From Lachnospiraceae bacterium (GTDB lineage Bacteria > Bacillota > Clostridia > Lachnospirales > Lachnospiraceae), in contig JAAUZM010000027.1 in NCBI GenBank assembly GCA_014804605.1, forward strand, positions 45,220 to 109,219: a stretch of 64,000 nt of DNA, read 5' to 3'. Each line of letters begins with the position of its first letter. Position 1 is the stretch's first letter. The notes below the pieces were generated by a model that was not told the DNA's origin, ran no database searches, and saw nothing but the letters and a program-made list of their open reading frames with translations. Below are positions 9,627 through 53,017 of the stretch, piece after piece. The position numbers were made by a program, and so were the translations under genes.

Positions 9627-9779
9627 TTACTCCCCTGACACCTGCGTCCCGTCTGCCTTCATGTGATATTTGTCTTTGTAAATCAGCTGTGAGATCGGCA
9701 CCAGCTCATACCCTTTATCCTGCAGTCCGGTAATGACTGACTCCAGCGCATCCGCCGTATATTTTGCCCCGTTGGGTGC
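9627..9779 (-). pseudogene. displaced 3' fragment (last 50 codons) of the polysaccharide deacetylase gene split by the prophage
   Basis: Minus-strand reading APNGAKYTADALESVITGLQDKGYELVPISQLIYKDKYHMKADGTQVSGE* continues in frame from ...IILMHNGAP at 52118-52138. Confidence 0.8.
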
Positions 9780-9796
9780 TCCTTAGTTAGTATACC
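9766..9796. other. attL (host arm GCCCCGTTG, shared core GGTGC, phage arm TCCTTAGTTAGTATACC)
   Basis: The GGTGC core at 9775-9779 is shared with 52119-52123. The phage arm TAGTTAGTATACC is the exact reverse complement of GGTATACTAACTA at attR. Confidence 0.75.
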
Positions 9797-9838
9797 CTAT
9801 ATTTTGAGGTAAAATTACTGCAAGGGCGCTGCCCGTGC

Positions 9839-9925
9839 CTTAGCTCCGACAATTCCGTCTACAATTTAGGCCTTCGCTTTCCGGAATGCCCTAACTGCTA
9901 CCAGCGTCTTCTCTCCGAAGATTTC
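9839..9925 (-). pseudogene. decayed copy of the endolysin peptidoglycan-binding domain 3' end
   Basis: About 80 percent identical by eye to 12595-12681. The first 16 nt, CTTAGCTCCGACAATT, are identical. The reading frame has an in-frame stop (IFGEKTLVAVRAFRKAKA*IVDGIVGAK). Confidence 0.55.
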
Positions 9926-10001
9926 TTCTCCCTTCAGAATGAAAAGGAGAATCTCTTTTTCACTTCTTTTGATTCCCTAAGACGTATGATGTAAAAAAGG
10001 A

Positions 10002-10033
10002 AGAGCGACAGAATACTCTGTCGTTCTTTTTTT
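10002..10033. terminator. bidirectional intrinsic terminator
   Basis: Stem AGAGCGACAG / CTGTCGTTCT (one mismatch), loop AATACT, flanked by AAAAAA upstream and TTTTTTT downstream. Confidence 0.5.
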
Positions 10034-10159
10034 AATCCCCTGCTTTTTCCGTTATCGTCCCGCACCAAGCGCCAATCTGATTAAAATATAAAATTTGTTT
10101 TTTCATAATTGAAGGGGCACTCAAATGCCCCTTCAAAATTCAATAAAACTAACCTAATC

Positions 10160-10588
10160 CTATTTATCACTACTCATCCATAAGCATACCAGAAAAAGTA
10201 TTACTGCGACTACTTCTAAAAGTACCCAAAAATACGTTATTATATTTCTTTGTAGTACTATAATCAAAACAGTGGCTATCCAATTGATTACCAAGTATCC
10301 TAATGCAAACCTTCGAGAATATTCCCAAAAATCATCTACTACAAACCTTACAGTTACTCCAATCGACACTACAACCATCAATAATGTTGCTATTTTTGCA
10401 ATACCTCCAAAAATTAATGCTCCTAAATACTCTTTCGGATACTCTAGCAAAAAATGAATTGCCTCTTGTGTCGTAGCAGGCTTTATCAAATTTTCAGTAA
10501 CGTAAAAATATGCTATTGCAGAGATGGCAAATATTACTGCTATACTAACAGATATCTGCCATTTTATCATATGTCTTAAACGTTCCAT
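10160..10588 (-). CDS. prophage membrane protein (about 4 TM), function unknown
   Basis: 142 aa; GGAGG 7 nt upstream; four hydrophobic segments; AT-rich cargo next to attL. Confidence 0.6.
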   Translation of the reverse strand: MERLRHMIKWQISVSIAVIFAISAIAYFYVTENLIKPATTQEAIHFLLEYPKEYLGALIFGGIAKIATLLMVVVSIGVTVRFVVDDFWEYSRRFALGYLVINWIATVLIIVLQRNIITYFWVLLEVVAVILFLVCLWMSSDK

Positions 10589-11462: not shown

Positions 11463-11479
11463 AATGTTCTCCCTCCATA

Positions 11480-12570: not shown

Positions 12571-13239
12571 TTATGAAGATAACTTCTCCCACGTCTTAGC
12601 TCCGACAATTGCGTCTACAGTTAAGCCATTAGCTTTCTGGAATACCTTGACTGCTGCCAGTGTCTTGTATCCGAAGATTCCGTCTATAGCACCAACTTCA
12701 TAACCTTTAGCTTTCAATATCTGCTGCAGTTCCTTGACTGACGATCCCTCACTTCCTTTTTTCAGAATCGGGTGTGCCTTAGACAATACTGCTGCCGTCT
12801 CATTGTCCCCAGAAACATTGGCACTCAGAAACAATGCTCTTTCTTCCTGCCGGCGCCGTGTCAGCCCAGAAAGACCCTTGCCTGCTGCCTTGTTATACAG
12901 CAGCATCTTCTCCGCAATGACTTCCCTGCTTCTGGTGCCTCCGGCGGTGAGCTGATCGATGCTCCCAAGGTTAAACGCAAAGGATACAAGCGCATCGAAC
13001 TCATGCTGGGTCCATCTGTACCTACTGTAAAAGTTATTTACTTTCTTTTCAAACTTTTCCAGATCTGCGATCAGGATTGCTTCCGCCTGTGCCTGCGTGA
13101 TCTTTTGTCCGGACTTCACATCTCCCGTATGTCCGTAACCGATGGTCCAGACTCCAGCCAGACATTTATAAGCATCCAGCCGGCAGCCTTCATATCTTTT
13201 GATCAGGTCTATGCCTGCCTGTCCTGTCTTTAACCCCAT
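12571..13239 (-). CDS. endolysin: GH24 (T4-type) lysozyme plus C-terminal PG_binding_1 domain
   Basis: IDLIKRYEGCRLDAYKCLAGVWTIGYGHTG catalytic region; C-terminal VKELQQILKAKGYEVGAIDGIFGYKTLAAVKVFQKANGLTVDAIVGAKTWEKL. Confidence 0.9.
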   Translation of the reverse strand: MGLKTGQAGIDLIKRYEGCRLDAYKCLAGVWTIGYGHTGDVKSGQKITQAQAEAILIADLEKFEKKVNNFYSRYRWTQHEFDALVSFAFNLGSIDQLTAGGTRSREVIAEKMLLYNKAAGKGLSGLTRRRQEERALFLSANVSGDNETAAVLSKAHPILKKGSEGSSVKELQQILKAKGYEVGAIDGIFGYKTLAAVKVFQKANGLTVDAIVGAKTWEKLSS

Positions 13240-13544
13240 TACTTGATACCTCCAATCTGTGCGATGGCCTGCTTAACTTTATCATATCCGAGCATACTTC
13301 CCAGCCAGTTGGCCACTCCCATCAAGGCAAGATATACGCTGTTAAGGGCATTAAAAGGTACCTGATAATTTACATAGTAGAGAGCCGTTGCCCCGCATCC
13401 TACGATCATCGCCACGATCAGCACTAAGATATTCGTCGCGTATGAAACATTCTGTTCATCCAGAAGTCTCTTGATTCCCTCTGTAAGCAGCGAAGTCACC
13501 GCCGCACACACTGTCAATATGATTAAAAACATCGTTACTGTCAT
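13239..13544 (-). CDS. holin (three predicted TM segments)
   Basis: 101 aa; three hydrophobic helices and a charged C-terminus; abuts the endolysin start. Confidence 0.75.
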   Translation of the reverse strand: MTVTMFLIILTVCAAVTSLLTEGIKRLLDEQNVSYATNILVLIVAMIVGCGATALYYVNYQVPFNALNSVYLALMGVANWLGSMLGYDKVKQAIAQIGGIK

Positions 13545-13858
13545 AATTCATCCTCACTTTCCGGTTGCACCGGTGCAACCTCTTCACTTTCTGTTTCGTT
13601 ATACATATACTGCTCCTTTAACCGCACCCGCTGCTCTTCCTTTGTCTCGAAATAGGATTTTACACTGTAAACAAGGAATGCACCTACGATCTCCGTCACA
13701 ATTAGCCCGCCCATCGTCTCCGCGATCTGATCCCGCCCCAGCAGCGCGAGCAGAAACGGAAACTGCATATCAACCAGCGCCACATTGATGATCCGGGTCA
13801 TCATCTTTTTGGTGTATGTATGATACCGGCGTGGTCTGGTCTGTCCGCTCTCTTCCAT
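13541..13858 (-). CDS. lysis-cassette membrane protein with acidic tail
   Basis: Start trimmed to ATG 13858 because the longer ORF overlaps the XhlA-like gene. The C-terminus ...SEEVAPVQPESEDEL carries palindrome copy 1. Confidence 0.5.
   Translation of the reverse strand: MEESGQTRPRRYHTYTKKMMTRIINVALVDMQFPFLLALLGRDQIAETMGGLIVTEIVGAFLVYSVKSYFETKEEQRVRLKEQYMYNETESEEVAPVQPESEDEL
13564..13579. repeat. 16-bp perfect palindrome GTTGCACCGGTGCAAC, copy 1 of 7
   Basis: Exact match, preceded by CCG; read as VAPVQ in the 13541..13858 gene. Confidence 0.95.
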
Positions 13859-13884
13859 TGTCCTCAGTCCTTTCCCGCAATGAT

Positions 13885-14145
13885 CTACACGATCGCGACT
13901 ACCGCAGCAATCACCGCACTTATGACCGCGCCGATCGCTGCGCCGGCGCTTGTCCTGCTCAGCCATTTGTTCCTATCCTGCAGATCCGCAATATCCTCTG
14001 CCTGCTGCGCGTTCTGCTCCTGCAGTTTGATTATTTCCCGCTGGTTATCATAGATCTGTTTCTTACTGTTGTCCCAGCTCTCGATCTTTGATTCGATCTT
14101 GATCAGGCGGTCTAAGACTTCCCTCTCGAAACTATTCTCCGGCAT
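13885..14145 (-). CDS. XhlA-like lysis-associated protein (coiled coil plus C-terminal TM)
   Basis: 86 aa; N-terminal coiled coil and C-terminal AAIGAVISAVIAAVVAIV anchor; positioned like PBSX xhlA upstream of holin and lysin; GGAGGA SD. Confidence 0.6.
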   Translation of the reverse strand: MPENSFEREVLDRLIKIESKIESWDNSKKQIYDNQREIIKLQEQNAQQAEDIADLQDRNKWLSRTSAGAAIGAVISAVIAAVVAIV

Positions 14146-14163
14146 AATTTTCCTCCTTCCCTG

Positions 14164-14373
14164 TTACTGTATCATCTGCTCACTTTTTATCTGCTGTCGT
14201 ACCTGACTGATCTGATCCGTCGGCGGTCCATTCGCCGGAAACATTGTTGCAACAGCTATTGCAGCAACTGATGCCATAAAAATAATATAAATTGCTGTCA
14301 GTATCTTTTTATTCCCACTTTCCGTTCTCCGGCATAGCTCCTCATGCTCTTTTTTTGATATATAGTCTTCCAT
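14164..14373 (-). CDS. small single-pass membrane protein
   Basis: 69 aa ORF with one TM (ILTAIYIIFMASVAAIAVATMF); weak SD. Confidence 0.4.
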   Translation of the reverse strand: MEDYISKKEHEELCRRTESGNKKILTAIYIIFMASVAAIAVATMFPANGPPTDQISQVRQQIKSEQMIQ

Positions 14374-14400
14374 ATTATTTCACATCGCTTTTTCAAGTTG

Positions 14401-15714
14401 TTATTCAACAGATGAATCGATCAAATCTTCTGTAGTCTCCTGCCCCGCCTGTGCACCTTTAAGTGCATCCATTCTTTTCGTGAGATTATTGATCTGCTCT
14501 TGCAGTTGCTGTAGGCTGGATAGTAGACTGTTATATCTACCTTCCACTTCCATTTGCAGTCCAAACAGCGAAATCGTCCTATTATTAAATGCTGTCTGTA
14601 CATCTCCTTCAATCCATACATTTCCTTTAAGCTGTGCACCTCCCGCTATTGTTGCATTGCCATTCCAGTCAATTTCTACAATATTCTTTCTGTCTGTATC
14701 AGACGTTCCGCCGCCGATAATCACAGCGCCGCTTTTGGCGGAATTATACTTGCCTCCAGCATGTTGTGCCATATCCGCAGCCATTACTCCCAGCCCCTCT
14801 GCGTGAGAATATGGTGGTGCAGCTGTGGTATTGTATCCCTCGGCATGAGCGCAAGTCATATTTGCTACCGTACCGTATCCCTCTGCATGGGAATAATCTC
14901 CATTTGCAGTCGTCTCGTTCCCTTCTGCGTGACTTGACTGGCCTCTCGCATTCGTTTTATTTCCCTCTGCGTGGGAATAACTGCCGATTGCAGTCGTCTC
15001 ATTCCCCTCTGCATGGGCAGCGTATGTGCTGGGAGAATTGCCGGCAATTGTCTTATATCCTTCTGAGTGAGAATAATGTCCTCCTGCGCAGGTTTCAAAT
15101 CCTTCTGCATGTTGAGAATTTGTCGCAGCCGGATATTCTTCCAATCCTGCCACTGTGCCATGTCCTTCAGCATGAGACTGAATTCCTATCGCTTTCGTAC
15201 CGTATCCCTCTGCATGAGATTGATTCCCGATCGCATTCGCGGAATACCCTTCCGCATGAGAAGAATAACCTTCAGCCTTTGACAGCCTCCCTTCGGCGTG
15301 GCTATAATTTCCGGAAGCTACCGTATCACCACCTTCAGCATGTGAAGGACTCCCGGAAGCCGTCGTATCTGTTCCTGACGCGGCAGAAAAGTCTCCCGAT
15401 GCGGTTGTTCTACTTCCTTCCGCGCAGGAATTCGCACCACTTGCACTAGTCATAAATCCGTATGCACGTGCATTTCTACCGGATGCAATGCCGTTATCTC
15501 CCCACGCGATACTCTGATCTCCTTTTACACTCTCGTTTTGCCTCCCAAGATTAATCGAATCATCATCGTATATCTCTTTCAGAGCACGGTTGTCCTTCGC
15601 TTCCTTGATTCCGGATTCGATATGCTCCAAGTCATCTGCCAGAATCGGTGTTATGCTATTAGGCTTATCCATCCAGTCTTCGTGCACCTTTGTGTATGTA
15701 TCTCTGGTTGCCAT
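14401..15714 (-). CDS. tail fibre with YadA-head-like (Hep_Hag-type) repeats and C-terminal coiled coil
   Basis: 437 aa; roughly 18 tandem 14-residue units built on xSHAEGxxTxAxGx; C-terminal LLSSLQQLQEQINNLTKRMDALK. Confidence 0.7.
   Translation of the reverse strand: MATRDTYTKVHEDWMDKPNSITPILADDLEHIESGIKEAKDNRALKEIYDDDSINLGRQNESVKGDQSIAWGDNGIASGRNARAYGFMTSASGANSCAEGSRTTASGDFSAASGTDTTASGSPSHAEGGDTVASGNYSHAEGRLSKAEGYSSHAEGYSANAIGNQSHAEGYGTKAIGIQSHAEGHGTVAGLEEYPAATNSQHAEGFETCAGGHYSHSEGYKTIAGNSPSTYAAHAEGNETTAIGSYSHAEGNKTNARGQSSHAEGNETTANGDYSHAEGYGTVANMTCAHAEGYNTTAAPPYSHAEGLGVMAADMAQHAGGKYNSAKSGAVIIGGGTSDTDRKNIVEIDWNGNATIAGGAQLKGNVWIEGDVQTAFNNRTISLFGLQMEVEGRYNSLLSSLQQLQEQINNLTKRMDALKGAQAGQETTEDLIDSSVE
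14710..15490 (-). repeat. tandem 42-nt (14-aa) degenerate coding repeats in the fibre gene
   Basis: Recurring YSHAEGY/SSHAEGN/QSHAEGH units seen in the translation; boundaries approximate. Confidence 0.6.
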
Positions 15715-15724
15715 GATATCCCTC

Positions 15725-17008
15725 CTATTCTTTTTCTAGCTCATTTATTTCTCCTCGGATTATAAAAAAATTCCCAGAAGACTCCTTAAGATATACATTG
15801 TCAAAATATACTATTGCTTCTCTTTCATCATATTCTTCATCGTTGCTGTGAGTCATTCCGTAACCGCACAATCCGTTTATCTTTTTTGCTCCAAATTCTT
15901 TGTTTTTAAAATATATATCCGAATAATACGCAATACTGCAACCAACCGAATAGCCATCGGTGGGGGACGGAACATTGCCACCTACATAGATTTCTGCATA
16001 ACGATTCGTTCTGGCGTTTTTTATACTAACAGCGGAATTAAATGTTATAAAATTTTCTTCCTTAAATCCTGCGCTTGTTATCGAATAAATACCGATCGAT
16101 CTTTTATCGTTACCGTCTCGTAAATTATAAATAAAAATCACAACTTCCTTTTCATCAGCGTACAAAACCTTCATCGATACAACATCTGATAAAGTTATAT
16201 CTTCCATTCTTTTCAATGTAGTGAATTTACCTTGAACTGGATCGAATTTCTGTACGGTCATTACGTAACCTTGAAGGTCTTTTGCGCCGACACACCATAT
16301 TTCATCTTGGACGTTAAACAAATTTACGCGCGTATTCAGTTCATAATGTTCAATCTGTTTAAATGATTCTTCGACAACGCCGCTTGTATTAACTATATCT
16401 ATGCTCAAGTGACTACTGCCTTCACTACGCCAAAAAACATATTTCTTACCATATCCGTTTGCTATCGTGCGTGGTTCAGACACTCCCGATATTCCATATT
16501 CAGTCTCAATGCATTCCTGTATATCTCCATTAATGTCAAAATTCAAAATAAACCACTTCTGGCTTCCTGTGCTTTGGTTTCCGTATGTAATAGCGCACGA
16601 ATTATCGTTAATTACAACAATTTGATTGCCAGAAAATGGCTGCGAAAACGGTTCTAGGTTTATTTTTTTCCATTTGACAGCGTCCTTTGAATATGCATAG
16701 AAGTACATCTGATATCCATCAGATTTCATGCCTTCTGGGGAAAACTGCGCAACTAAAGCTTTTCCTACCAATGTTATGTACTGTATTCCTCCGTAATAAG
16801 GAATTTCGTCAATATATTTTTCTTTTACATCCGCAAGCGCAATTCCGCTATAATAATCTCTTTTTTCTACAAAAAACTCGTCCGGATATAATTTTTCCCA
16901 AACAAGTTCTGCGCCTTTATATAATTTGTCATGAAACTTCCCGTCATAAAATAAATCCTTATGATCTGTTCCTTGATAAATCAATCTTGAACTTTGCTTT
17001 CCCATCAC
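15725..17008 (-). CDS. tail-tip/receptor-binding-region structural protein (by position)
   Basis: 427 aa ORF between the tail-tip protein and the fibre; no family recognised. Confidence 0.45.
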   Translation of the reverse strand: MMGKQSSRLIYQGTDHKDLFYDGKFHDKLYKGAELVWEKLYPDEFFVEKRDYYSGIALADVKEKYIDEIPYYGGIQYITLVGKALVAQFSPEGMKSDGYQMYFYAYSKDAVKWKKINLEPFSQPFSGNQIVVINDNSCAITYGNQSTGSQKWFILNFDINGDIQECIETEYGISGVSEPRTIANGYGKKYVFWRSEGSSHLSIDIVNTSGVVEESFKQIEHYELNTRVNLFNVQDEIWCVGAKDLQGYVMTVQKFDPVQGKFTTLKRMEDITLSDVVSMKVLYADEKEVVIFIYNLRDGNDKRSIGIYSITSAGFKEENFITFNSAVSIKNARTNRYAEIYVGGNVPSPTDGYSVGCSIAYYSDIYFKNKEFGAKKINGLCGYGMTHSNDEEYDEREAIVYFDNVYLKESSGNFFIIRGEINELEKE

Positions 17009-18414
17009 TCTACCACCACAATTCCTTGCACTGCATATAACGTATTTTCGTCTGGTATTGCCGGGTAATCATCAATCGTCGGAAGAGACACCAGCTTTAA
17101 TCCTCCACCACCCTCAAAATTCTCAAACATCCCGTCTATCGTTTCCTTATCGTAGTAGTCGTCCAGATCCGGCATAGGTACATCACCGCCGGTATACTGC
17201 TTCTTTTTCAGGATGTCGATCTGTGTCTGCAGGTCTGTGATAAACTCTGTCTGGTACTCTTCCCCCTCCGCGCTGTATGTATCCCTCAACGCCTGTATGC
17301 CGCTTAAGTTTCTGTTCAGCACGGGAAATGATTTTTCCATGTAGATAATATCTCCGGACGTGTTTTCCTCTGAATAAGTCGCTTCATAATCAATCATCAT
17401 GTAATTGACTACATTTAAGCCACATTCCACGAACGGGAGTCCGTTGTTGTCTGATCTATACGGATAATAGGAAAATCCCTGTACACTGTTGTATACATTC
17501 ATAGCAATAGCCGATAAAACATCTTTTGAAAGTCCGTAAGAGAACATGTTTCCCTGAATAATATAGTTGTTCTCTCCCGTTCCGTAAGTGACGCCCTCAT
17601 CTTCTTCGGACTGGCGGATCGTAACGCGGTCAACAGGACGCACTTCAAATTCCTCATGTTTGACTTCCTTGTAAAATGGAAAGCCTGTCTGTGTAAGTTC
17701 CTGATTTCTTAACGCTGTGTTTGCTCCCGGGAATGTATCCGGTCCGGGAAAAAGCGTCGGACCCGGATATGTGCCGTTATCATACATTTCACTGAGTATC
17801 CTGTATTCAAATTTCCCTTCACGGTTAATGATCCCGAATGCACCGTTGATCTGGCAGAATGCCTTGATTACAGATAACGCCTGCAAAGTGTTTGGGGCGT
17901 ACTGCTTATTGATCGTAATGGCATCGTTCGGCAGGCTTGTTTCCACCTGTTCCAAACCGACGAAATCAAACAGACTGTCACGCAGGTCTTTCAAGCTGAT
18001 CGGGAAGGTAAGGGATTTATACCACGCTGCGACTTCGGTGTTGCCACGGGTATACAGGTCATCATAAGCGGTGATTTCCTTGATCCGCTTATTGCTCTGC
18101 TTCATCGCGCTGTCTACGATTCCATTAAACAGCGCCACCGGCTCTTCTTCCGTACCGTCCGTCCATATTCTTACAATAATCCTTTTCCCTTTTACATCTT
18201 CCTTCAGGTCCTGCACATTAATCTTGAATTTACTGGCAATACAGCCGACAAATTCTATGCTCTCCTTATCCACCAGACTCTCCGAAAGGCTCATGGACTC
18301 TGAATGTATCGGAGTTCCGCTGATTTCTTTGTCCAGTTCAGGAAAATATAAGGCAATATGTTTTGTTACCGAATCCTGCTTATACGCATTTTTTACATTG
18401 TCTGATACTTCCAT
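17005..18414 (-). CDS. tail-tip (Tal-like) structural protein
   Basis: 469 aa; second gene after the tape measure; 4-nt overlap with the next gene. Confidence 0.55.
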   Translation of the reverse strand: MEVSDNVKNAYKQDSVTKHIALYFPELDKEISGTPIHSESMSLSESLVDKESIEFVGCIASKFKINVQDLKEDVKGKRIIVRIWTDGTEEEPVALFNGIVDSAMKQSNKRIKEITAYDDLYTRGNTEVAAWYKSLTFPISLKDLRDSLFDFVGLEQVETSLPNDAITINKQYAPNTLQALSVIKAFCQINGAFGIINREGKFEYRILSEMYDNGTYPGPTLFPGPDTFPGANTALRNQELTQTGFPFYKEVKHEEFEVRPVDRVTIRQSEEDEGVTYGTGENNYIIQGNMFSYGLSKDVLSAIAMNVYNSVQGFSYYPYRSDNNGLPFVECGLNVVNYMMIDYEATYSEENTSGDIIYMEKSFPVLNRNLSGIQALRDTYSAEGEEYQTEFITDLQTQIDILKKKQYTGGDVPMPDLDDYYDKETIDGMFENFEGGGGLKLVSLPTIDDYPAIPDENTLYAVQGIVVVE

Positions 18415-18422
18415 GCCATCTC

Positions 18423-18824
18423 CTAATATTCAATAAACAGCCAGTCCATCTCATTGTACTTTGTCGGCACTCCGTTTTTGTCCACCTCGTCCCGTTTTGC
18501 TTGGAAACTCTTATCCAGATAAAACTCCCCGGTTTTAAATGTTCCGCTCTCGTCATCGTAATAAGTGCAGTTCGCATTCCGAAGTTTATAATCAATATAG
18601 TTGCTTACTATGCCGGACATAATCCCGCGGAACTCTGCACCGCTCATTGAAAGCGTCGTAAACTTTATCTCTGTCTTGGTATGGGGCATTCCGTTATCGT
18701 GGGTTACGCCGTACATATCCGTATAAGGATCGAGGCTCTGCCTCTGGTTCGGCTTTATATCGGGTGAACCCTTCTTTATTAATCTGTCCGGGAAGTCGTA
18801 GTTTCCGAATCTAAACTGTGCCAT
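18423..18824 (-). CDS. small distal-tail protein (by position)
   Basis: 133 aa, immediately downstream of the tape measure gene. Confidence 0.45.
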   Translation of the reverse strand: MAQFRFGNYDFPDRLIKKGSPDIKPNQRQSLDPYTDMYGVTHDNGMPHTKTEIKFTTLSMSGAEFRGIMSGIVSNYIDYKLRNANCTYYDDESGTFKTGEFYLDKSFQAKRDEVDKNGVPTKYNEMDWLFIEY

Positions 18825-18833
18825 ATGTAACCT

Positions 18834-21758
18834 CTATGCAAGTGCGTGTTTTCCATGCTGCTTATAATACTCTCTGTCCAGTTTCTGTATGATCTCCAAC
18901 AAACGGTACCCCTCACACTCAACCGTCAGGTGAAGGTTAATCTCCTGTCCGGCATTACCGCCGGTAAGTCCAAGTGTTGCTGCCTCTTCCCGTAATGCCT
19001 GTTTGATCGTCGAGATCGGTGACACGATCTCCGTCTCTCTATTGTTATCCCCGAGGATTGCGAGGTGCTGCTTCATTGTCCGCGGTATCACCTGCCCGGT
19101 GGCGTATGCCGGTATCTCTACTTTATTCAGCGATGCGATAGCGGCATTGGCTGTATAAGCCGACGGTGCTGACATGCGGGAAGACTTTTGCGAAGTTCCT
19201 CCGAACAATCCACCAACCTTGCTTCCGAAAGAGCCAAATTTATCACCTATACTGCCTACTTTTTGTGCGATCCAATCGAGGGCTTCCTTGACAGTATTTT
19301 TAATACTCCCTAGAATCGTTTTTACTTTATCTCTGAGACCGTTCCAAAGATTTGTCCATATTTGTCTAACGTTCGAATTAAAACTAGAAAATCCGGCTTT
19401 TATCTCATTGAATTTTCCAAGAATATTCTGCTTTACAAAATTAATTACAATCTCAACAGTTTTCTTTATTGACTGCAAAAATGCGTCTATAGAAGATTTT
19501 GTTGCTTCGACAAATACTTTTAAGATGTCTGATATTAACTGCAAACCGCCTTCTATAGTTCCTCTGATAGTTTCTGCAAATCCGCTAACAATATCTTGCA
19601 ATCCCTGAAACGCCTTTTCCCAATCACCTGAAAGGACTCCGGTAACGAAATCAATCAGGCCGCCAAGGATCGTAATTACGCCACTTATCATGTCCGCAAT
19701 ATATCCTGCAAGATTTTTCAACGTATTCCATACCGCTTGAATAACCGGAAGAATTTTAGGTAATACATTGGCGATGATCCACGCAATCATCGGCTGTAAA
19801 TAATTTTCCCAGACCACCTTAAGTAAATCAGCAATCTTCCCAAGAAATTCTGCGGCATTATCAAGCAATGGCTGTATATGGCTTTGCCACAACTCATCAA
19901 AATCTGCCGCCCACTGATCTAATATGGGCTGCACGTTTCCATTCCAGAACTCTAAAAATTGACCAACCAGATCGGACAATCCCTGCGCCACCGAATCAAA
20001 AAATGGCTTGAAGTGCTCATCGTATACTTCATTGAGCTTATCGAAGGTATCATCAATCCCCTGCTTAATAGTCCCTGCGACTTCTGCCAAAACACCGAGG
20101 AATCCTTCTAATGCCGCACGGAATGCTTCCTTATTGTCTACAAAAGGCTTTATGATAATCTGTGCTATATCGCGGAAGAACTTTGACGCAAGCTCTGTTA
20201 TTCCCATGAGGGTATCTGCGAAGATGCCAATAATATTTGCTGTAAGCTTCTGCCCCTGCTCGCTCGCAAAAGCTTCAAAAACATAGGCTATCGACTGAAA
20301 CAATTCAGCAAACATCTGATTTATTTCCGCCCATATATTAAACATGGATATCAGATGTTCTTTTATCCTGTCCTTGTTCTCTTCGAGATACTTTGCAATT
20401 CCACCCAGAATGTTTGTCGCAATCGTAAGACCGATGCTTGCCATAGCGCCGACAAGGCTGCCGAGCATATATGCTACTGACTGCGCCCAGCCATCAGCAG
20501 CCGCTAATACTGCCGGATCAGTAAAAATATCAATCAGACTCTCTTTAATAGATGCAAGGCTGTCTTTGATGGACTGCCACCGGTATTCCCAATCACCCAA
20601 TCCGTCCCAGAATCCCTGCATAAAGATGTCTTTCAATTTCTCTGCATAATCAATGATAGGTTTTAGCAAGTCCTTCAGCTTCTGTATAAAATCTAAGATT
20701 CCGCTGTTGATCGGAACTTCCTCAAACATTCCGGAAGTGTCCTCATCATCCTTGCCGGAATCCTTATCAGATGTTATGACATTTAACTTATCAAGACTGC
20801 TAACCTGCTTGTTCTGCTCTTTGTTTTGCTCCTTTATTGCCGCAGTCGTCTGCTTAACTGCTTTTTTGTATGTTTTCTGTCCGGAAATTGCCGCTATAAA
20901 CTGTCCTACGGTATCAATAAGTCTGGTCAACCATTCTACTGCCTTCTGTATATATGGGACGACCATCTGTACCAGTGGCGCAAAAGCAGCGGCGAGACTA
21001 TTTTTCAGCGTCAGCAGGCTTGCCTTAAGGCTGTCTATGGAATTTCTGAACTGTTCGTTCCCTTTATAAAAATTGTCAAATCCACCCTTTATGCCCTGTG
21101 TAAGCGCGCGGAAAGCTTTGCCTATCTGACTAACAATAAAGAATGAAATTGCGAGGCTCTTGAGCCTCGAACCAAAGTTTTTTAAAAGTCCGCATGATTT
21201 CTCTGCGTACTTATTTATCTTTTTGAATGCATTTCTTCCATTCTCTCCAAACTTCTTATACGCCTCGGTTGCATTCCTCTGCTTGGCAGTAAGAAGATCA
21301 TGCTTTTCAGTCAATACAGACAGCTCATTGCGCAGATACTGCACCTGCTGCGCCATCTTGGCATACTCTTCCGTATCCTGTCCCAGAGTAAAAGCCTTAC
21401 CGGTATCGACAAGATCCTGTAATTCTCCTTTGGCATATTTGATCTCGTTCTCTGTCTCTTCGATCTGGTGAATCAATCTATCCCATGCAACGCCGTTAGC
21501 TTTTCCTTCGCGCTGCATCTGTTCCTGCTTTTCAAGAAGCTTGTTAAGTTTCTGTTCTGCCTTCTCGATCTGCGTTGTGATTTCTTGATATTCCTGCGTC
21601 GGCAGCTTCGCGTCCTTCATTTCGCCCATTTTGGACATCAGAGACGCGATCTTATCAGCCTTCTTGGCAATCTGGTTTTCCAGTGCCATAAGCTGAACTT
21701 CTGCACCTTTTCTATCAATTTTTGTTCCGACTCTTATGGTGGTATCATAATTTGCCAT
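18834..21758 (-). CDS. tail tape measure protein
   Basis: 974 aa; N-terminal coiled coil, long helical glycine/alanine-rich core, hydrophobic central segments; canonical position. Confidence 0.85.
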   Translation of the reverse strand: MANYDTTIRVGTKIDRKGAEVQLMALENQIAKKADKIASLMSKMGEMKDAKLPTQEYQEITTQIEKAEQKLNKLLEKQEQMQREGKANGVAWDRLIHQIEETENEIKYAKGELQDLVDTGKAFTLGQDTEEYAKMAQQVQYLRNELSVLTEKHDLLTAKQRNATEAYKKFGENGRNAFKKINKYAEKSCGLLKNFGSRLKSLAISFFIVSQIGKAFRALTQGIKGGFDNFYKGNEQFRNSIDSLKASLLTLKNSLAAAFAPLVQMVVPYIQKAVEWLTRLIDTVGQFIAAISGQKTYKKAVKQTTAAIKEQNKEQNKQVSSLDKLNVITSDKDSGKDDEDTSGMFEEVPINSGILDFIQKLKDLLKPIIDYAEKLKDIFMQGFWDGLGDWEYRWQSIKDSLASIKESLIDIFTDPAVLAAADGWAQSVAYMLGSLVGAMASIGLTIATNILGGIAKYLEENKDRIKEHLISMFNIWAEINQMFAELFQSIAYVFEAFASEQGQKLTANIIGIFADTLMGITELASKFFRDIAQIIIKPFVDNKEAFRAALEGFLGVLAEVAGTIKQGIDDTFDKLNEVYDEHFKPFFDSVAQGLSDLVGQFLEFWNGNVQPILDQWAADFDELWQSHIQPLLDNAAEFLGKIADLLKVVWENYLQPMIAWIIANVLPKILPVIQAVWNTLKNLAGYIADMISGVITILGGLIDFVTGVLSGDWEKAFQGLQDIVSGFAETIRGTIEGGLQLISDILKVFVEATKSSIDAFLQSIKKTVEIVINFVKQNILGKFNEIKAGFSSFNSNVRQIWTNLWNGLRDKVKTILGSIKNTVKEALDWIAQKVGSIGDKFGSFGSKVGGLFGGTSQKSSRMSAPSAYTANAAIASLNKVEIPAYATGQVIPRTMKQHLAILGDNNRETEIVSPISTIKQALREEAATLGLTGGNAGQEINLHLTVECEGYRLLEIIQKLDREYYKQHGKHALA

Positions 21759-21847
21759 TAAAAAAAGTCCTACCTTTAGCTTTTCAGGTTAGCGACACGC
21801 TCCTCTTGCGTGCCGGTATTAAATCTGTTGCGGAACTGAATGCCAAC

Positions 21848-22441
21848 TCAACCCAAATGCTCTTCCAGATATGAGTTGTATGCTTCCTCCTCCCGAAGCT
21901 CTTCCCGGCTCTTCGGTTTCCGTATATCCACCAGATCACGGTTGCGATTATAATATTCACTCTCATGGTCTGTCAGTTTCTTTCCTCTGTTCAGCTTGTC
22001 ACGGATACCGACTATATATGTCCACGTATCTTCCCCGATTTCGCTCATATAGCCCGTCAGCGTCCACCAGTGGATATATTCCGCCTCACGCACTTCCATG
22101 CCCGCTACGGCGTTCACAGCCGCGAATATCATCTGTTCATCCTGCTCCCAGTTAAAAACAGGTTTTTCAGTATCTTTTGCCCGATGCCGGCCTCCGGACA
22201 GGAACCAGCCGATCTGTGCTGCTGCCTCCTGTATGTCGAAACCGTCCTCTATCGCCGCATACACATCGTCCGCACAGGTAAAATCCTCAAATAACAGATA
22301 TATGGCCACGATCCATGCCTCGCCGGTTTCAAGTTCCGGATCATTGAACGCCTTGTATACCTGAAGAACGTTTCTGTAATCCGTCCGCATGGGATATTCT
22401 GCATCACCGACCGTCAACGTCTCCGGAAGATGCCCGATCAT
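21848..22441 (-). CDS. tail assembly chaperone, Gp15-like
   Basis: 197 aa directly upstream of the tape measure; the N-terminus LTVGDAEYPMRTDYRNVLQVYKAFND resembles the Phage_Gp15 family as I recall it. Confidence 0.5.
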   Translation of the reverse strand: MIGHLPETLTVGDAEYPMRTDYRNVLQVYKAFNDPELETGEAWIVAIYLLFEDFTCADDVYAAIEDGFDIQEAAAQIGWFLSGGRHRAKDTEKPVFNWEQDEQMIFAAVNAVAGMEVREAEYIHWWTLTGYMSEIGEDTWTYIVGIRDKLNRGKKLTDHESEYYNRNRDLVDIRKPKSREELREEEAYNSYLEEHLG

Positions 22442-22977
22442 TTTTTACTCCCTTTTCTTCTATTGCCCGATTTCTTGTGATCCTGCGGCTGATACTTCCC
22501 CATGCGCTGTTCCCGCGCCAGTTCATCCTTCTTGAACTTTCTGCCGAATGTCTTTTCCATGATCGGGGTAATCTTCTCAAAAAAATCAGTAATGCATCCC
22601 GCGTCCGGCAGGAAGTCCGGAATCTCGTCGTAGACATCGCTGAAGTATTTCCGGACTGTTCCTTCCCCGAACATATTGTCAATAGTCTGCACTGCCAGAT
22701 TTGAAAATTCCACGTTTACCTTGGAGATCTCAGTAACTTTATCCCTAACAGACTGCATATCCTTTTTGCCTTCGTATTGCTTCTCGATCTGTTTGATCCG
22801 TCCTGCAACCGCGTCCGCTTCGTCCATGATCCGTCCATAGCCTGCGACAAATTTGTCGTAAGTCTCCGCATTATCACCAGAGATCGCTATGTAATCGCCT
22901 TCCTCGTTCAATTCAATCTTGTGAATGCTTATACTGCTTTCTACTATGCTTGATTTTTCTACAAGTCTTTTTCCCAT
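22438..22977 (-). CDS. tail assembly chaperone-like protein
   Basis: Start trimmed to MGKRLVEK (ATG 22977, AGGAGG upstream); lies between the major tail gene and the Gp15-like gene. Confidence 0.45.
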   Translation of the reverse strand: MGKRLVEKSSIVESSISIHKIELNEEGDYIAISGDNAETYDKFVAGYGRIMDEADAVAGRIKQIEKQYEGKKDMQSVRDKVTEISKVNVEFSNLAVQTIDNMFGEGTVRKYFSDVYDEIPDFLPDAGCITDFFEKITPIMEKTFGRKFKKDELAREQRMGKYQPQDHKKSGNRRKGSKK

Positions 22978-23052
22978 CCTAATATCCTCCTGTAATCCGG
23001 AATGCGAACAGGAGGTACGCACTCCGGATATATTAAGTTTTTACTTAATACC

Positions 23053-23613
23053 TTAACTCTCGGCTTTCTTTGCCGTGCTGTTTGCCGTGCCTGCCGTCTG
23101 GTTTATCGTCTGTGTCTCCACCGCCGCACCTTCCGTAAACGTAGGCACCCGCTTGGTAACAGACACGCTGCCTTCAGTTCTTCCGCCGTTCATGCTGATA
23201 TTGAACGGAATCGCAAACCCTGTCGTATCTCCACCGTATGACTGTGGTACCACTACCACATTCTCCATCCATGCCTGACCTGTCAGCGTGACAGTATCGG
23301 ACTTCTTGACCTCATCCGTCAGGATTGCTTCCAGCAGATACGCACCGGTGGACTCCTCATCCGATTTCCTGTTCATTGCAAGATCCTTAATATGTTCGTA
23401 AATCGCATCTTCTGTTCTGGCGAAATAATTATCCAGTGCCAGCTCCGGTTTAAATCCGCTGTGATCCACGATGGTCTCACCCAGAACATTCTGTTTGGTC
23501 TCTACTTCGGGATTTAACTCCAAGGATACATTGTCTGTATCCTTTCCAATCAGCGTCCATTTCTCCTTGTCAAATGACAGCCATGTTGCATATACGGCTC
23601 TCGGTAATTTCAT
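23053..23613 (-). CDS. major tail protein
   Basis: Start trimmed to MKLPRAVYATW (ATG 23613, AAGGAGG upstream); 186 aa; position and size typical. Confidence 0.6.
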   Translation of the reverse strand: MKLPRAVYATWLSFDKEKWTLIGKDTDNVSLELNPEVETKQNVLGETIVDHSGFKPELALDNYFARTEDAIYEHIKDLAMNRKSDEESTGAYLLEAILTDEVKKSDTVTLTGQAWMENVVVVPQSYGGDTTGFAIPFNISMNGGRTEGSVSVTKRVPTFTEGAAVETQTINQTAGTANSTAKKAES

Positions 23614-23626
23614 CTTGTTTCCTCCT

Positions 23627-25297: not shown

Positions 25298-25312
25298 ACA
25301 GCCCCCTCCCTT

Positions 25313-25549: not shown

Positions 25550-25559
25550 AACGCGCCTC

Positions 25560-26432: not shown

Positions 26433-26448
26433 TTAGTTCTCCTCCTTC

Positions 26449-27021: not shown

Positions 27022-27122
27022 GTTCTCTTCTCCTTTTAACGATTTTTTTAACGAGGTCAATCAACCTCTGGATGCTGCGGAATATCCCGCTGTAAAAAAA
27101 AGAACCGATACAATCAATCCAT

Positions 27123-27281: not shown

Positions 27282-27364
27282 GTGACCACCGCTTTTATAA
27301 TTTCACATTATATGTTATGCGTTTATCATAACATTAGTTTATATATTGTGCAAGAGAAAAATCT

Positions 27365-29405: not shown

Positions 29406-29408
29406 AGC

Positions 29409-30839: not shown

Positions 30840-30849
30840 CCTGTTCTCC

Positions 30850-46233: not shown

Positions 46234-46668
46234 ATGGATAAATACGATATTGATTTATGCTACAGAATTCGTGAATTGCGAAAGGCTGTCCAGATGAATC
46301 AAACAGATTTTGGTACTAAAATCGATGTTGCACAAAGCTATTTAACAAATATTGAGACCGCTAAAAGACCCGTTACTGATAAGATTTTTAAACTAGTTTG
46401 TTTACAGCCATGGAATGGTAAATTTGTCAACGAGACGTGGCTCCGTACTGGTAAAGGAGACATGTTTCAAGAGCTTCCTCCTGAAGATGAGACGGCTGCT
46501 GCCATTTCCAACGTATTGGAGGATATCAACTGCAAAAATTCTATTTATACGCTGGTAAAAGAATTGCTTTTGAAATATGACCGTCTGGATCCCAGATCTA
46601 AGAAAGTCATCGACGAATATGCTGATGACGTAATCAAAGGCTATATAGAAAAGAGAGAAGAAACTTAA
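46234..46668 (+). CDS. XRE-family repressor-like protein (candidate CI analogue)
   Basis: 144 aa; IRELRKAVQMNQTDFGTKIDVAQSYLTNIETAKR HTH; GGAGGTG SD; located in the switch region near the integrase. Confidence 0.75.
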   Translation: MDKYDIDLCYRIRELRKAVQMNQTDFGTKIDVAQSYLTNIETAKRPVTDKIFKLVCLQPWNGKFVNETWLRTGKGDMFQELPPEDETAAAISNVLEDINCKNSIYTLVKELLLKYDRLDPRSKKVIDEYADDVIKGYIEKREET

Positions 46669-49652: not shown

Positions 49653-49653
49653 T

Positions 49654-50502: not shown

Positions 50503-50520
50503 TTATTATCTTATGATATT

Positions 50521-50555
50521 AGAGAGAATGCTGCAAAGGCTTTCTCTCTTTTTAT
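50521..50555 (+). terminator. intrinsic terminator
   Basis: AGAGAGAA ... TTCTCTCT followed by TTTTTATTT. Confidence 0.6.
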
Positions 50556-50704
50556 TTGTTGAATCCTATATATAAGTTTATAATGTACGTCCATTGACAC
50601 ACGCATTCTAAACATGTTACATTGATCCAAAAGGTTGGTGCAAGGCTCTAGTTGTCGGTACTTTTATGCCCTGCTTTCGATATGCTATAGAAGGAGGAAT
50701 TTAA

Positions 50705-52102
50705 ATGTCTAAAATATTACGATGTGCAATCTATATCCGTGTTTCTTCCGCCGAGCAGGTTATGCACGGCAAGAGCCTTGAAGCTCAGCTCAGCTTTTTG
50801 ACCGAATACGCGGAGCGCCAGGGCTGGAAAGTGGTCGGACACTTTGCCGATGAGGGAAAGACTGCCCGCAAAGAACTGAAGCGCAGGAAAGCTATCAAAG
50901 AGCTTCTGGAACATGTGAAAAATGATGAAATAGATGTGGTGCTCTTCTGGAAGATGGACCGCTGGTTTAGGAATGTCTCCGACTTCTACAAGGTGCAGGA
51001 TATCCTTGACGCTCATCACTGCAAATGGGTTGCTGCCGCCGAGCCCAGCATGAACCTTGAGACCCGTGAGGGCCGGCTAAATGTCAATATCATGCTGTCG
51101 ATCAACCAGAACGAAACAGATACGACCAGTGAACGTATCAAATTTGTGAATGAGTCTTCCATCCGTCAGGGAAAAGCTATTTTCGGGGACGCTGCACTGC
51201 CTTTCGGTTATACAGTCCAGACTGTTGACGGGGTGAAAAGACTCGTCAAGGATCCTGATAAAGAAGCTCTGGTCAATGAAATCTTTGAATACTACTTTGC
51301 GCATCAAAGCAAGCAGGGGACAGTAAAATATATCAACCGGAAATATGGCGATGTATTTACAATCAATTCCATGCTGACTATGTGCAGAAGCACCTTCTAT
51401 TACGGGGCATATCGTGATAATGAAAACTACTGTCCCGCATATATCACGAAGGAACAATATGACGCCATGCAGATCATCAATATGAAGAATATTAAAATAA
51501 AAGCAAACCAATCAAAACAGGATCCCTATTTATTCTCCGGACTCTTCGTATGCCCGCTATGCGGCCGTAGACTTGGATGTGCGCGCCGGATCAGAGGTAA
51601 GCAGCCTCGGTACTATAGATATTACAGATGTATTAATCATTATATGAATAGCCGGTGTGATTACTCAAAAGTATTGAATGAAGCCGTGTGTGAAGATTAT
51701 CTGCTGAACAACATAGAACGGCTTATCGCCGAGCAGGAAGTGGCGATCCGTAATGTGCATGAACCCAAACAGGCTGCCAAAACAGTGAATATCAATGAAT
51801 ACCGTAAAGAACTCGATCGATTAAATAATATGTATCAAAAAGGCCGCATCGCGGAAGATAAATATGATTCTGAATATGAGAGAATTACAAATATCATCAA
51901 GGATTATGAAAGTAGCATAGTATCTTTCCCGACTTCTCAGAAGTCATTTGATAAAATAAAAAGCACCCTGTCCGGAGACTGGATTGAAATCTACCAATCC
52001 CTTGACAGGGAAAACAAGCGCGCATTCTGGCGTGAAATCATAGAAAGCATTGAATGTAACATTGATACGGGGACGATAAAGAATGTTAATTTTTTGATTT
52101 GA
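50705..52102 (+). CDS. large serine recombinase (phage integrase)
   Basis: 465 aa; resolvase catalytic N-terminus CAIYIRVSSAEQ, recombinase domain, zinc ribbon CPLCGRRL...YYRC, C-terminal coiled coil. The stop is 3 nt from attR. Confidence 0.9.
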   Translation: MSKILRCAIYIRVSSAEQVMHGKSLEAQLSFLTEYAERQGWKVVGHFADEGKTARKELKRRKAIKELLEHVKNDEIDVVLFWKMDRWFRNVSDFYKVQDILDAHHCKWVAAAEPSMNLETREGRLNVNIMLSINQNETDTTSERIKFVNESSIRQGKAIFGDAALPFGYTVQTVDGVKRLVKDPDKEALVNEIFEYYFAHQSKQGTVKYINRKYGDVFTINSMLTMCRSTFYYGAYRDNENYCPAYITKEQYDAMQIINMKNIKIKANQSKQDPYLFSGLFVCPLCGRRLGCARRIRGKQPRYYRYYRCINHYMNSRCDYSKVLNEAVCEDYLLNNIERLIAEQEVAIRNVHEPKQAAKTVNINEYRKELDRLNNMYQKGRIAEDKYDSEYERITNIIKDYESSIVSFPTSQKSFDKIKSTLSGDWIEIYQSLDRENKRAFWREIIESIECNIDTGTIKNVNFLI

Positions 52103-52104
52103 AT

Positions 52105-52128
52105 GGTATACTAACTATGGTGCGCCGT
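52105..52128. other. attR (phage arm GGTATACTAACTAT, shared core GGTGC, host arm GCCGT)
   Basis: Core at 52119-52123. The phage arm is the reverse complement of the attL phage arm. Joining the two phage arms gives a palindromic attP, GGTATACTAACTA-TGGTGCTCCT-TAGTTAGTATACC. Confidence 0.75.
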
Positions 52129-53017
52129 TATGCATAAGGATAATCGATCCGTTATTCAGCTTATCGGACTCCACCACGCGCTTGACGATGTCGTCCACTC
52201 CATAGTCCTTCCAATCGAGAGAATCGATCGACCATTGAATCGGATAATAACCGCATTTATGCGCATTCGTTATGACATGATTGTCATAATCTCCATAAGG
52301 CGGTCTGAAAAGGCACATCTCATAGCCGGTAAGCTCCTGCACCTTAGTATGTACTTTCATCAGCTCTTCCTGACACTGCTCGTCGGAAAGCTGGGACATA
52401 TTTTTATGATTCTCGCTGTGGTTGCCCAGGTCGTGCCCGTCCGCCAGAATCGCCTTCACGTCATCGGGGTAGCTCTCCACCCATCCGCCGGTCATGAAGA
52501 ATGTCACTTTCACATTATGCTTCTTAAGAATCTCCAGAATCCGGCTTGTATCCTCATTGCCCCAAGCAGCATCGAAGCTGAGAGCCACCTGCTTTTTATC
52601 CGTCTCCACACAGTAGATCGGCAGTTCCCGACCGCCCACGGAGCTGCTGACCGTAATGGAATCCGGCAGTACCTTAACCACTCCCTGTATCAGCGCAACG
52701 GTTGCCAGCGCAAATGCCGCCGACTTCGCCACCTGCATTAATACATTCTGCACAAATCCCTTTCGTTTCTGCTCCTCCTTTGTCCGATATTCGGAGGGTA
52801 CACTGCTGCCACAGTGCTGACTGCCGCAATACCGGCCGCTGCTTCTCTCTCTCTGCCGCTGTGCTGTCCATGCTTCTACCTGATCCGGTGCCGGCCATAC
52901 CCGCTCATTCCCGCCTGTCGCGAAATCCTTCTGCATTTTTCCCTCTAATTCACACATCGCAAGTTTAATCTTATCGTTCCAATGTGTCTTCTTTTTACGC
53001 ATAATAATACCCTGCAT
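52115..53017 (-). CDS. PdaB-like polysaccharide deacetylase, truncated at the prophage junction (5' 299 codons)
   Basis: TM anchor then NodB motifs SFDAAWG, HSENH, RPPYG, DSLDW, IILMH. The TAG stop at 52115-52117 is supplied by phage DNA. Confidence 0.8.
   Translation of the reverse strand: MQGIIMRKKKTHWNDKIKLAMCELEGKMQKDFATGGNERVWPAPDQVEAWTAQRQRERSSGRYCGSQHCGSSVPSEYRTKEEQKRKGFVQNVLMQVAKSAAFALATVALIQGVVKVLPDSITVSSSVGGRELPIYCVETDKKQVALSFDAAWGNEDTSRILEILKKHNVKVTFFMTGGWVESYPDDVKAILADGHDLGNHSENHKNMSQLSDEQCQEELMKVHTKVQELTGYEMCLFRPPYGDYDNHVITNAHKCGYYPIQWSIDSLDWKDYGVDDIVKRVVESDKLNNGSIILMHNGAP

Follow-up and report, generated by a model that had tools for sequence, protein, structure and literature searches.

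A prophage splits a deacetylase gene

We analysed a stretch of 64,000 nucleotides (nt), hereafter the window, from a Lachnospiraceae bacterium (contig JAAUZM010000027.1 of assembly GCA_014804605.1, positions 45,220 to 109,219). In the window, a complete siphovirus-like prophage, with structural, lysis, replication, lysogeny and accessory genes annotated with PHROG and Pfam, lies inside a gene for a PdaB-like polysaccharide deacetylase of the NodB fold (Table 1). As a result of the insertion, the gene consists of a 5′ fragment and a promoterless 3′ fragment 42 kb apart. On the right, the minus-strand open reading frame (ORF) 52115-53017 ends ...IILMHNGAP, followed by a TAG contributed by phage DNA. 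On the left, 9627-9779 reads in frame on the minus strand APNGAKYTADALES...GE-stop (in full, APNGAKYTADALESVITGLQDKGYELVPISQLIYKDKYHMKADGTQVSGE-stop). Both ends had been described in this way in an earlier reading of the sequence (hereafter the original prediction) and are confirmed here, as is the large serine recombinase gene that ends beside the right junction, with its stop codon (52100-52102) 2 nt from the phage arm starting at 52105.

The recombinase contains Resolvase, Recombinase and Zn_ribbon_recom domains, all three above cutoffs (PF00239, 2.5e-28), and the motif ...CAIYIRVSS... near its N-terminus. Its best NCBIfam match, XisF, scored 133 against a cutoff of 375, and no specific assignment was made. 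Among deposited phages, none was related to the prophage past 67-70% identity over ~10% of the query.

The crossover lies within CCGTT

Both junctions hold the pentamer GGTGC (9775-9779 and 52119-52123), which the original prediction took for the common core of a 36-bp palindromic attP. The repeat is present at both places and the 13-bp arms, GGTATACTAACTA and TAGTTAGTATACC, are exact reverse complements as stated, but GGTGC is not the crossover. This is indicated by the intact orthologues, by the symmetry of the half-sites, by the attP layout of related phages and by an empty site, all of which rule out a GGTGC core with a 36-bp attP.

Joining the two fragments at CCGTT gives a 344-aa protein reading …ILMHNGAKYT…, in register with every intact orthologue. 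The ~40 uninterrupted orthologues all read …IILMHNGAKYTADALE…, and none contains the extra APNG of the product first proposed, ...MHNGAPNGAKY...; hence, no intact allele fits the join as originally written and all of them fit the CCGTT join, ...MHNGAKY.... The same join yields a 48-bp attP (gene strand, GGTATACTAACTAAGGAGCACCC-AA-CGGCGCACCATAGTTAGTATACC), an imperfect palindrome whose 23-nt half-sites match at 19 of 23 positions around the central TT/AA, compared to 7 of 23 in the 36-bp model. The two halves of attB match at 5 of 23 positions, and the core that attB has in common with attP is CCGTT.

In phage contigs with 44-49%-identical recombinases, the stop codon of the recombinase gene is immediately followed by a contiguous attP, with the same 23+2+23 layout and TT/AA centre as in the window prophage, and the motif TACTAACT stands at equal offset in the attP of 44-45%-identical recombinases (L085/L086 type). 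The AA exchange point is also common to L002, L089-L093 and L097-L101, whose recombinases are 50-95% identical.

Junctions were also sought in Logan contigs of metagenomes, in which any one run held at most 28% of the window words. In a gut metagenome (X1), a 454-nt contig corresponds to 9541-9773 (1 mismatch) joined to 52130-52350 (3 mismatches). The contig thus represents an unoccupied attB from a strain ~99% identical to the window, …TATATTTTGCCCCGTT/ATGCATAAGG…, joined at 9773/52130, and the identical join is found in metagenome runs X2 to X4. The att sites first predicted, including the attB GCCCCGTTGGGTGCGCCGTTATGC, are thus wrong by 6 bp on each side.

Overall, the prophage entered codon Asn-292 (H-N-G), immediately past NodB motif 5, by means of its large serine recombinase, and the exchange took place at TT/AA inside CCGTT, between the 48-bp near-palindromic attP and the deacetylase gene. 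Since the crossover is CCGTT, GGTGC is part of the inverted phage half-sites; likewise, the codons Ala-Pro-stop that end the 5′ fragment and the Ala-Pro that begins the 3′ fragment are phage DNA. All tested features of large-serine-recombinase integration are present: the domain order with Y-x-R-x-S, a ~50-bp attP with a short shared core, and an empty site equal to the joined flanks. In addition, as in intervening elements, the recombinase adjoins one junction and excision restores the ORF. From the empty site of the ~99%-identical strain, the reverse reaction is predicted to rebuild the exact wild-type gene, so that the central claim of the original prediction, a serine-integrase prophage whose excision restores a PdaB-like deacetylase, is upheld. 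More generally, a short repeat shared by two att junctions need not mark the crossover.

Table 1 Features of the locus and of related loci. Positions are those of the window unless marked as gene nt or preceded by a locus number.
Feature	Position	Strand	Remarks
Deacetylase gene (PdaB-like, NodB), 5′ part	52125..53002	-	runs on into phage DNA, stop 52115-52117
Deacetylase gene, 3′ part (…AKYTADALESVITGLQDKGYELVPISQLIYKDKYHMKADGTQVSGE-stop)	9627..9768	-	last helix, strand, C-terminal hairpin
Putative -10-like box of sigmaE/sigmaK type, GCATATACT	53033..53041	-	upstream of deacetylase gene; orthologue comparison
Conserved hairpin ATACCCTGCATA…TATGCAGGGTAT	53007..53048	-	pairs promoter spacer/-10 region with ribosome-binding site
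Integrated prophage	9774..52129	.	42,356 bp, one CCGTT copy included
Left common core CCGTT (gene strand AACGG)	9769..9773	.	exchange dinucleotide TT 9772-9773; empty-site contig match ends at 9773
Right common core CCGTT	52125..52129	.	exchange dinucleotide TT 52128-52129; empty-site contig resumes at 52130
Left phage half-site GGGTGCTCCTTAGTTAGTATACC	9774..9796	.	includes GGTGC and 13-bp outer arm; 19/23 symmetry with right half-site
Right phage half-site GGTATACTAACTATGGTGCGCCG	52105..52127	.	begins 2 nt past recombinase stop; half-site symmetry
Large serine recombinase (integrase), 465 aa, N-terminus MSKILRCAIYIRVSS	50705..52102	+	PF00239, PF07508, PF13408
Insertion site A, FDAAWGN/E	gene nt 454-464		NodB motif 1; L040-43, L048, L050; second type L047, L058
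Insertion site B, ILADG/H	gene nt 580-581		element like an integrative and conjugative element (ICE), with actin-like ParM and DUF6017 genes; L039
Insertion site C, QWSI/D	gene nt 793-804		499-508 aa recombinases; L035, L036, L038, L080
Insertion site D, HN/G	gene nt 897		window prophage and 95%-identical recombinase; window, L002
Orphan deacetylase 3′ fragments	L005:8117-8310, L006:8429-8883, L016:7107-7310, L018:10771-10976, L023:9190-9395, L033:12158-12304, L053:8515-8751		
ImmA/IrrE-like M78 peptidase	10953-11504	-	far end of prophage
HTH partner of M78 peptidase	11480-11878	-	
Late-gene block overall	12571..32199	-	
Endolysin	12571-13239	-	PHROG/Pfam annotation
Tape measure	18834-21758	-	PHROG/Pfam annotation
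Major head protein	25560-26432	-	PHROG/Pfam annotation
Minor head	27528-29405	-	PHROG/Pfam annotation
Portal	29409-30839	-	PHROG/Pfam annotation
Large terminase	30850-32199	-	PHROG/Pfam annotation
Replication initiator	42899-43729		
HTH_3 repressor-like gene	46234..46668	+	lysogeny switch
Mrr-type restriction endonuclease	47125-48078	+	accessory block
Zinc-ribbon protein	48141-48824	+	accessory block
SocA/Panacea antitoxin-like gene	49215-49652	+	accessory block; overlaps 286-aa partner
286-aa partner of SocA/Panacea gene	49642-50502	+	accessory block

The split gene encodes a PdaB-like deacetylase

The start codon of the gene is likely ATG 53002 (MRKKK...), according to an alignment of start codons; an in-frame ATG lies upstream at 53017. 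When compared with Pfam and NCBIfam models, the restored protein contains a single PF01522 (Polysacc_deac_1) NodB domain (127.6 bits), and its top NCBIfam model is PdaB TIGR02764 (219.9 bits, profile positions 1-191 of 191), ahead of YlxY (166.9 bits), PdaA (151.3 bits) and PgdA (150.6 bits). Its place in the NodB-fold carbohydrate esterase 4 (CE4) family is borne out by PF01522, by solved CE4 structures and by an AlphaFold model built with an alignment, in which the predicted local distance difference test (pLDDT) of the domain is 85-97. A model from the single sequence was useless (pLDDT 38). The protein has the FD-x-x-WG-x-E variant of motif 1 in common with B. subtilis PdaB (SpoVIE/YbaN); unlike TIGR02764, it carries a ~130-residue N-terminal extension outside the model, with a long helix predicted at residues 75-111. 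The restored gene is predicted to encode a membrane-anchored, PdaB-like polysaccharide deacetylase. In B. subtilis, pdaB (spoVIE) belongs to the sigmaE regulon and its loss reduces sporulation to ~5% (PMC4703394). In C. difficile, three polysaccharide deacetylases are under sigmaE and pdaA is under sigmaG (PMC3789822).

The break follows strand 286-290 (IILMH) of the AlphaFold model and removes helix 297-310, a short strand and the C-terminal hairpin, all at pLDDT 95-97. This missing segment of 45 residues is nearly invariant, residues past the break being at least 90% conserved in 43 homologues. The solved NodB structures 6hm9, 6hpa and 7bkf (E ~1e-40; residues 127-328) and PdaA 1w17 can be aligned up to residue ~325 of 339, and these structures, like the PdaB model, extend ~30-35 residues beyond the break. 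The insertion thus deprives the NodB barrel of a conserved C-terminal part whose fold is predicted with confidence, and the truncated enzyme is probably inactive.

A conserved promoter-like box and hairpin

Upstream of the gene, the box GCATATAyT is invariant in 31 of 32 otherwise diverged orthologue upstream regions, ~35 nt before the start codon, and an A-rich block, TA[CG][AT]AAA, lies 15 nt upstream of it. The B. subtilis sigmaE -10 consensus is CATACAHT (after Helmann and Moran). The box agrees with it at 7 of 8 positions; the consensus of the host may differ. The box also fits the description of the C. difficile sigmaE and sigmaK -10 elements, which are near-identical (PMC3789822). The original prediction had raised the question of a sigma-E- or sigma-G-type promoter for this gene; a conserved sigmaE/K-type -10 box is present, as a consensus match and not as a mapped promoter, and we refer to it as a predicted promoter.

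A hairpin (Table 1) that takes in the box and the ribosome-binding site is conserved as well. Across the alignment, 79.6% of cells are paired, compared to 33-55% in slid controls; compensatory changes occur at 3 pairs, and none of 500 shuffles reaches the observed score. The hairpin could sequester the ribosome-binding site in read-through transcripts and not in those started at the box, which would tie translation to the promoter.

The same gene is interrupted at four sites in relatives

The gene was surveyed in the best 80 species-representative loci (L numbers, used also for the other loci compared here). Split alleles occur in 14 of these 80 loci, with breaks at four fixed sites (Table 1). 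Site-A inserts encode YIRLSREDGDK-type recombinases of 538-612 aa, some of them in elements of 3-5.4 kb; the second type of site-A arm has no visible recombinase. Since a tblastn search with the site-D recombinase as query (E < 1e-5) did not detect the recombinases of sites A and C, the three represent separate lineages. A single cluster of near-identical species, with 95-98% nt identity in the gene, contains intact alleles (L061 and the X1 contig) together with site-A (L040, L041), site-B (L039) and site-D (window) alleles. A contig from metagenome X2 breaks at 52564 (gene nt 454) into a site-A arm.

Site D is used beyond the prophage of the window. In L089-L093, found in a metagenome scan with the recombinase, recombinases 64-66% identical to that of the window adjoin a 5′ half of the deacetylase gene that stops at residue 300. 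In L097-L101, a ~50%-identical recombinase clade sits in a site-D element of ~2.5 kb with both gene halves visible, and the junction, …GCTCCC-AA-TGGTGCAAAATA, has the AA exchange of the window. These mini-elements contain only a 461-aa recombinase and a 108-aa stand-alone Spo0A C-terminal DNA-binding domain (Spo0A_C, PF08769, full length and without receiver; L097:1589-1912, E 6e-28; L098:1682-2005, E 3e-29; also in L099-L101). The window prophage has no Spo0A_C homologue. In L101, one gene copy is cut twice, at sites A and D (L101:860-1440 and 3906-4050).

Further observations concern the same gene. The site-A arm of L101 reads TTTTCCGCATTTTACCTGCTCCA/TGGGG, with a Dam-like methylase ORF adjoining. 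Contigs of X2 (n=4) and X9 match the gene to 52270 (gene nt ~748) and continue into unrelated sequence, TCGCATAATATTCACAATCC…; this break could be a fifth insertion site. In L042 (2664-4280) and L050 (4179-6017), a site-A recombinase immediately precedes the 3′ half, and a search over 6 kb found no 5′ half; sugar-metabolism-like genes lie ahead of the recombinase. Perhaps the element is large in these two loci, or the 5′ half has been lost. Several genomes carry an orphan deacetylase 3′ fragment 0.1-5 kb downstream of an intact copy (Table 1). Those mapped by nucleotide (L005, L006, L016, L018 and L023) begin at site B or C, and the fragments of L005, L018 and L023 are preceded by sequence that resembles an element arm. 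Small cargo genes, by sequence appearance Abi-like, toxin-antitoxin-like, DUF3990 and GNAT-like, lie between the intact copy and the fragment. Orphan fragments may be relics of elements, or belong to elements that bring a replacement 3′ end.

Split halves carry a signature of purifying selection

All eight site-A 3′ halves are uninterrupted ORFs of 193 codons, with pairwise ratios of nonsynonymous to synonymous substitution rates (dN/dS) of 0.01-0.05, compared to 0.005-0.035 for intact alleles. Split halves overall are uninterrupted, with dN/dS of 0.01-0.10. The recombinases are under purifying selection as well (0.04-0.25; window versus L002 copy, 0.04). Such ratios show constraint in the split state only where the insertion predates the divergence. 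Between the window and L002, both at site D, element and host have diverged to a similar extent, dS being 0.65 for the recombinase and 0.73 for the host 5′ half. Between L097 and L098, it is 0.25 for the recombinase, 0.77 for Spo0A_C and 0.47 for the host 5′ half, with dN/dS of ~0.10 for the 5′ half and 0.06 for Spo0A_C. The site-D values fit long co-inheritance of the element within a gene that would still matter; alternatively, co-diverged elements may have been acquired in parallel. In addition, L002, L035, L039 and L080 retain the promoter box and the hairpin although their alleles are split.

Proposed developmental excision and its rivals

As the most likely reading, which we hold with about even confidence, the phage acts as a switch that controls a sporulation-type deacetylase in the manner of SPbeta and skin. 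The deacetylase would be a sporulation gene read from a mother-cell-type (sigmaE/K-class) promoter; if it is needed in sporulation only, its interruption would be free of cost during growth. The recombinase, together with a directionality factor, would excise the element upon phage induction and possibly also in the sporulating mother cell, and excision in the mother cell during sporulation is plausible. In this manner, the enzyme would be made only when needed and the prophage would be retained in the spore chromosome. The same logic would account for unrelated serine-recombinase elements at four fixed sites of one gene. The conserved sigmaE/K-type box, the targeting of four sites, including by minimal elements, and the selected split halves give indirect support, at the level of sequence, to this developmental reading, and the Spo0A_C gene of the site-D mini-elements may add a link to sporulation.

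Several observations weigh against it. The restored protein falls 17.5 bits short of the PdaB equivalog cutoff (219.9 versus 237.4), the promoter assignment involves a -10 box with one mismatch and a loosely conserved -35, and the host flanks of the 64-kb window contain no sporulation genes. Serine integrases often target conserved coding sequences for non-developmental reasons. Exact and degenerate attP searches retrieved no excised or free attP form from IMG/VR or the JGI metagenomes. In regular-expression scans, the prophage contained 0 sigmaE-type promoters (0.17 expected) and 4 sigmaK-type promoters (3.8 expected), and the mini-elements showed nothing consistent. No directionality factor was found in the prophage, but such factors have no sequence signature. 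The recombinase gene is preceded by a housekeeping-like TTGACA promoter, which is compatible with SPbeta-type control, in which regulation falls on the directionality factor, and is not evidence for it. Finally, at site A, the dS between the elements of L040, L041 and L043 is 0.04-0.07, compared to 0.2-0.5 between their hosts. As element dS is far below host dS, these elements spread horizontally and recently, so that the low dN/dS there says little about the split state; vertical co-divergence is ruled out for these three loci.

A GCATATAYT box at 10679-10687 was considered as the promoter of an excision factor. The motif occurs 2 times in the window (1.29 expected) and has no -35 here, and the ORF that follows encodes a multi-pass membrane protein (a ‘moron’), so this candidate was rejected.

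The main rival is that the prophage is that of an ordinary lysogen, its attachment site being a conserved gene that the host can do without, with no excision timed to sporulation. The gene would then be off in lysogens and return only on induction or curing, and the host would tolerate or compensate for the loss. This explanation is a serious one, although we hold it clearly below even confidence. It agrees with a complete prophage that has a repressor, an ImmA-like module and a housekeeping-type integrase promoter, with prophage scans that detected no sporulation promoter or excision factor, with the horizontal spread of site-A elements and with the presence of another NodB gene nearby (3180-3944); furthermore, both empty and occupied alleles are found in nature, which is what a free-living temperate phage would lead one to expect. 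However, it leaves unexplained why 2.5-5 kb elements without phage or transfer genes keep intact, selected recombinases, why split halves stay undecayed even where the divergence of element and host match, and why a single gene is targeted by four recombinase lineages that are unrelated to one another.

The split alleles could also be decaying pseudogenes in lineages without sporulation, the gene being a graveyard of mobile elements. In the family, which also includes spore formers, sporulation has frequently been lost (bioRxiv 10.1101/2022.02.25.481979), and the orphan 3′ fragments and cargo islands beside the gene, together with the absence of a 5′ half within 6 kb in L042 and L050, would suit such decay. 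We nevertheless judge it very unlikely: the eight site-A 3′ halves are full-length and as constrained as intact alleles, the 5′ halves of the mini-element lineages have a dN/dS of ~0.1, and the promoter and hairpin are kept in split alleles. Even if all five NodB motifs, including motif 5 (IILMH), and the PF01522 match precede the junction, it is very unlikely that the truncated enzyme (residues 1 to ~293 plus the phage Ala-Pro) is still active and the insertion functionally neutral, as the original prediction had allowed, given that the PdaB model and NodB structures run on past the break into residues that are conserved, confidently folded as helix and strand, and evolving at dN/dS of 0.01-0.05.

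Relation to known intervening elements

The proposed phage-borne switch most resembles SPbeta in spsM of B. subtilis (SprA, SprB). Like the window prophage, SPbeta is complete and encodes a large serine recombinase close to one of its ends, and its precise excision rebuilds the ORF; its target is a spore-envelope polysaccharide gene, as the deacetylase gene would be. SPbeta is also inducible. The SPbeta integrase is constitutively expressed (PMC4191935, PMC5595907, PMC5499854), and the integrase promoter of the window looks constitutive too. In contrast to SPbeta, the target here is a NodB deacetylase, the host is an anaerobic gut Lachnospiraceae, the recombinase belongs to another lineage, and the scan of the window prophage found no SprB-like factor with a mother-cell promoter.

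Degenerate or non-phage elements with a serine recombinase also interrupt mother-cell genes, namely skin (sigK; SpoIVCA/Skr in B. subtilis, CD1231/CD1234 in C. difficile), vfbin (spoVFB), vrin (spoVR) and gin (gerE). One gene may be entered at different positions in different lineages, as sigK is in Bacillus compared to Clostridioides (PMC6957869, PMC5025042, PMC5595907). At sites A and D, the elements of 2.5-5 kb resemble skin, vfbin and gin. Unlike in the skin type, however, at least four sites of a single gene are used here within one family, and even within one species cluster, and L101 is cut twice.

The element yin in yabG of Clostridium botulinum is also prophage-like, has a Resolvase, Recombinase and Zn-ribbon integrase and lies in a clostridial sporulation gene. 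Its integrated and excised forms coexist, and it is limited to one strain (PMC10747680). Whereas yabG is hit by no other element, the deacetylase gene is a recurrent target. In Listeria, phi10403S in comK (active lysogeny) is similar to our proposal in that reversible excision of a prophage from a coding sequence switches the gene on, a phage regulatory switch cited in PMC6957869 and PMC10747680; that switch answers the intracellular environment and is unlinked to a terminal cell type. The targets of intervening elements listed in the publications consulted, sigK, spoVFB, spoVR, spsM, gerE, kamA and yabG, include no deacetylase, and a literature search on pdaB with prophage, sporulation and excision found nothing.

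A possible shared landing pad

Beyond the window, we tentatively propose, as a possibility rather than a probability, that at least four unrelated serine-recombinase lineages have the deacetylase gene as their common landing pad, and that their elements are kept through mother-cell excision and gate spore maturation. In gut Lachnospiraceae, these elements range from full phages and one that is ICE-like to minimal elements of 2.5-5 kb. If this holds, mobile elements would gate spore maturation, and hence host-to-host transmission, in abundant gut commensals, and the receiver-less Spo0A DNA-binding domain would tie the site-D mini-elements to the sporulation master regulon. If excision is developmental, a cortex/peptidoglycan deacetylase would form a new target class, and the phenomenon would extend to Lachnospiraceae, a dominant gut family with spore-dependent transmission. 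The multi-site use of one gene offers a natural experiment on what attracts elements to such genes. Of special interest are the targeting of one gene at several sites by several lineages and the mini-elements with a Spo0A domain. In addition, the analysis yields several sets of recombinase, attP and attB, the best supported being the 48-bp attP with the GCCCCGTTATGC-centred attB.

Other genes of the prophage and its surroundings

The accessory block beside the integrase (47125-50502; Table 1) has a low GC content (0.33-0.36) and probably consists of defence and toxin-antitoxin ‘morons’. The phage may contain two regulatory modules, M78/HTH (10953-11878) and the HTH repressor-like gene (46234-46668). 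Within the prophage, a tRNA-Val (CAC) gene (35861-35936, plus strand) is opposite in orientation to the late and early genes around it.

The genomes nearest to the window are Lachnospiraceae metagenome-assembled genomes from the rodent gut. Host genes downstream of the split gene are glgC and glgD; upstream are a 214-aa gene of unknown function and a gene for a phosphotransferase system EIIC component. The NodB deacetylase gene at 3180-3944 (minus strand; 254 aa; PF01522, 1.4e-16) is shorter than the split gene and lies 6 kb from it, and could compensate for it. A DUF3990 and DUF3791 gene pair lies in the host flank at 5590-6281 (minus strand); DUF3990 is also cargo of site-A mini-elements (L041, L048) and of the L005 island, and the pair may mark another element remnant.

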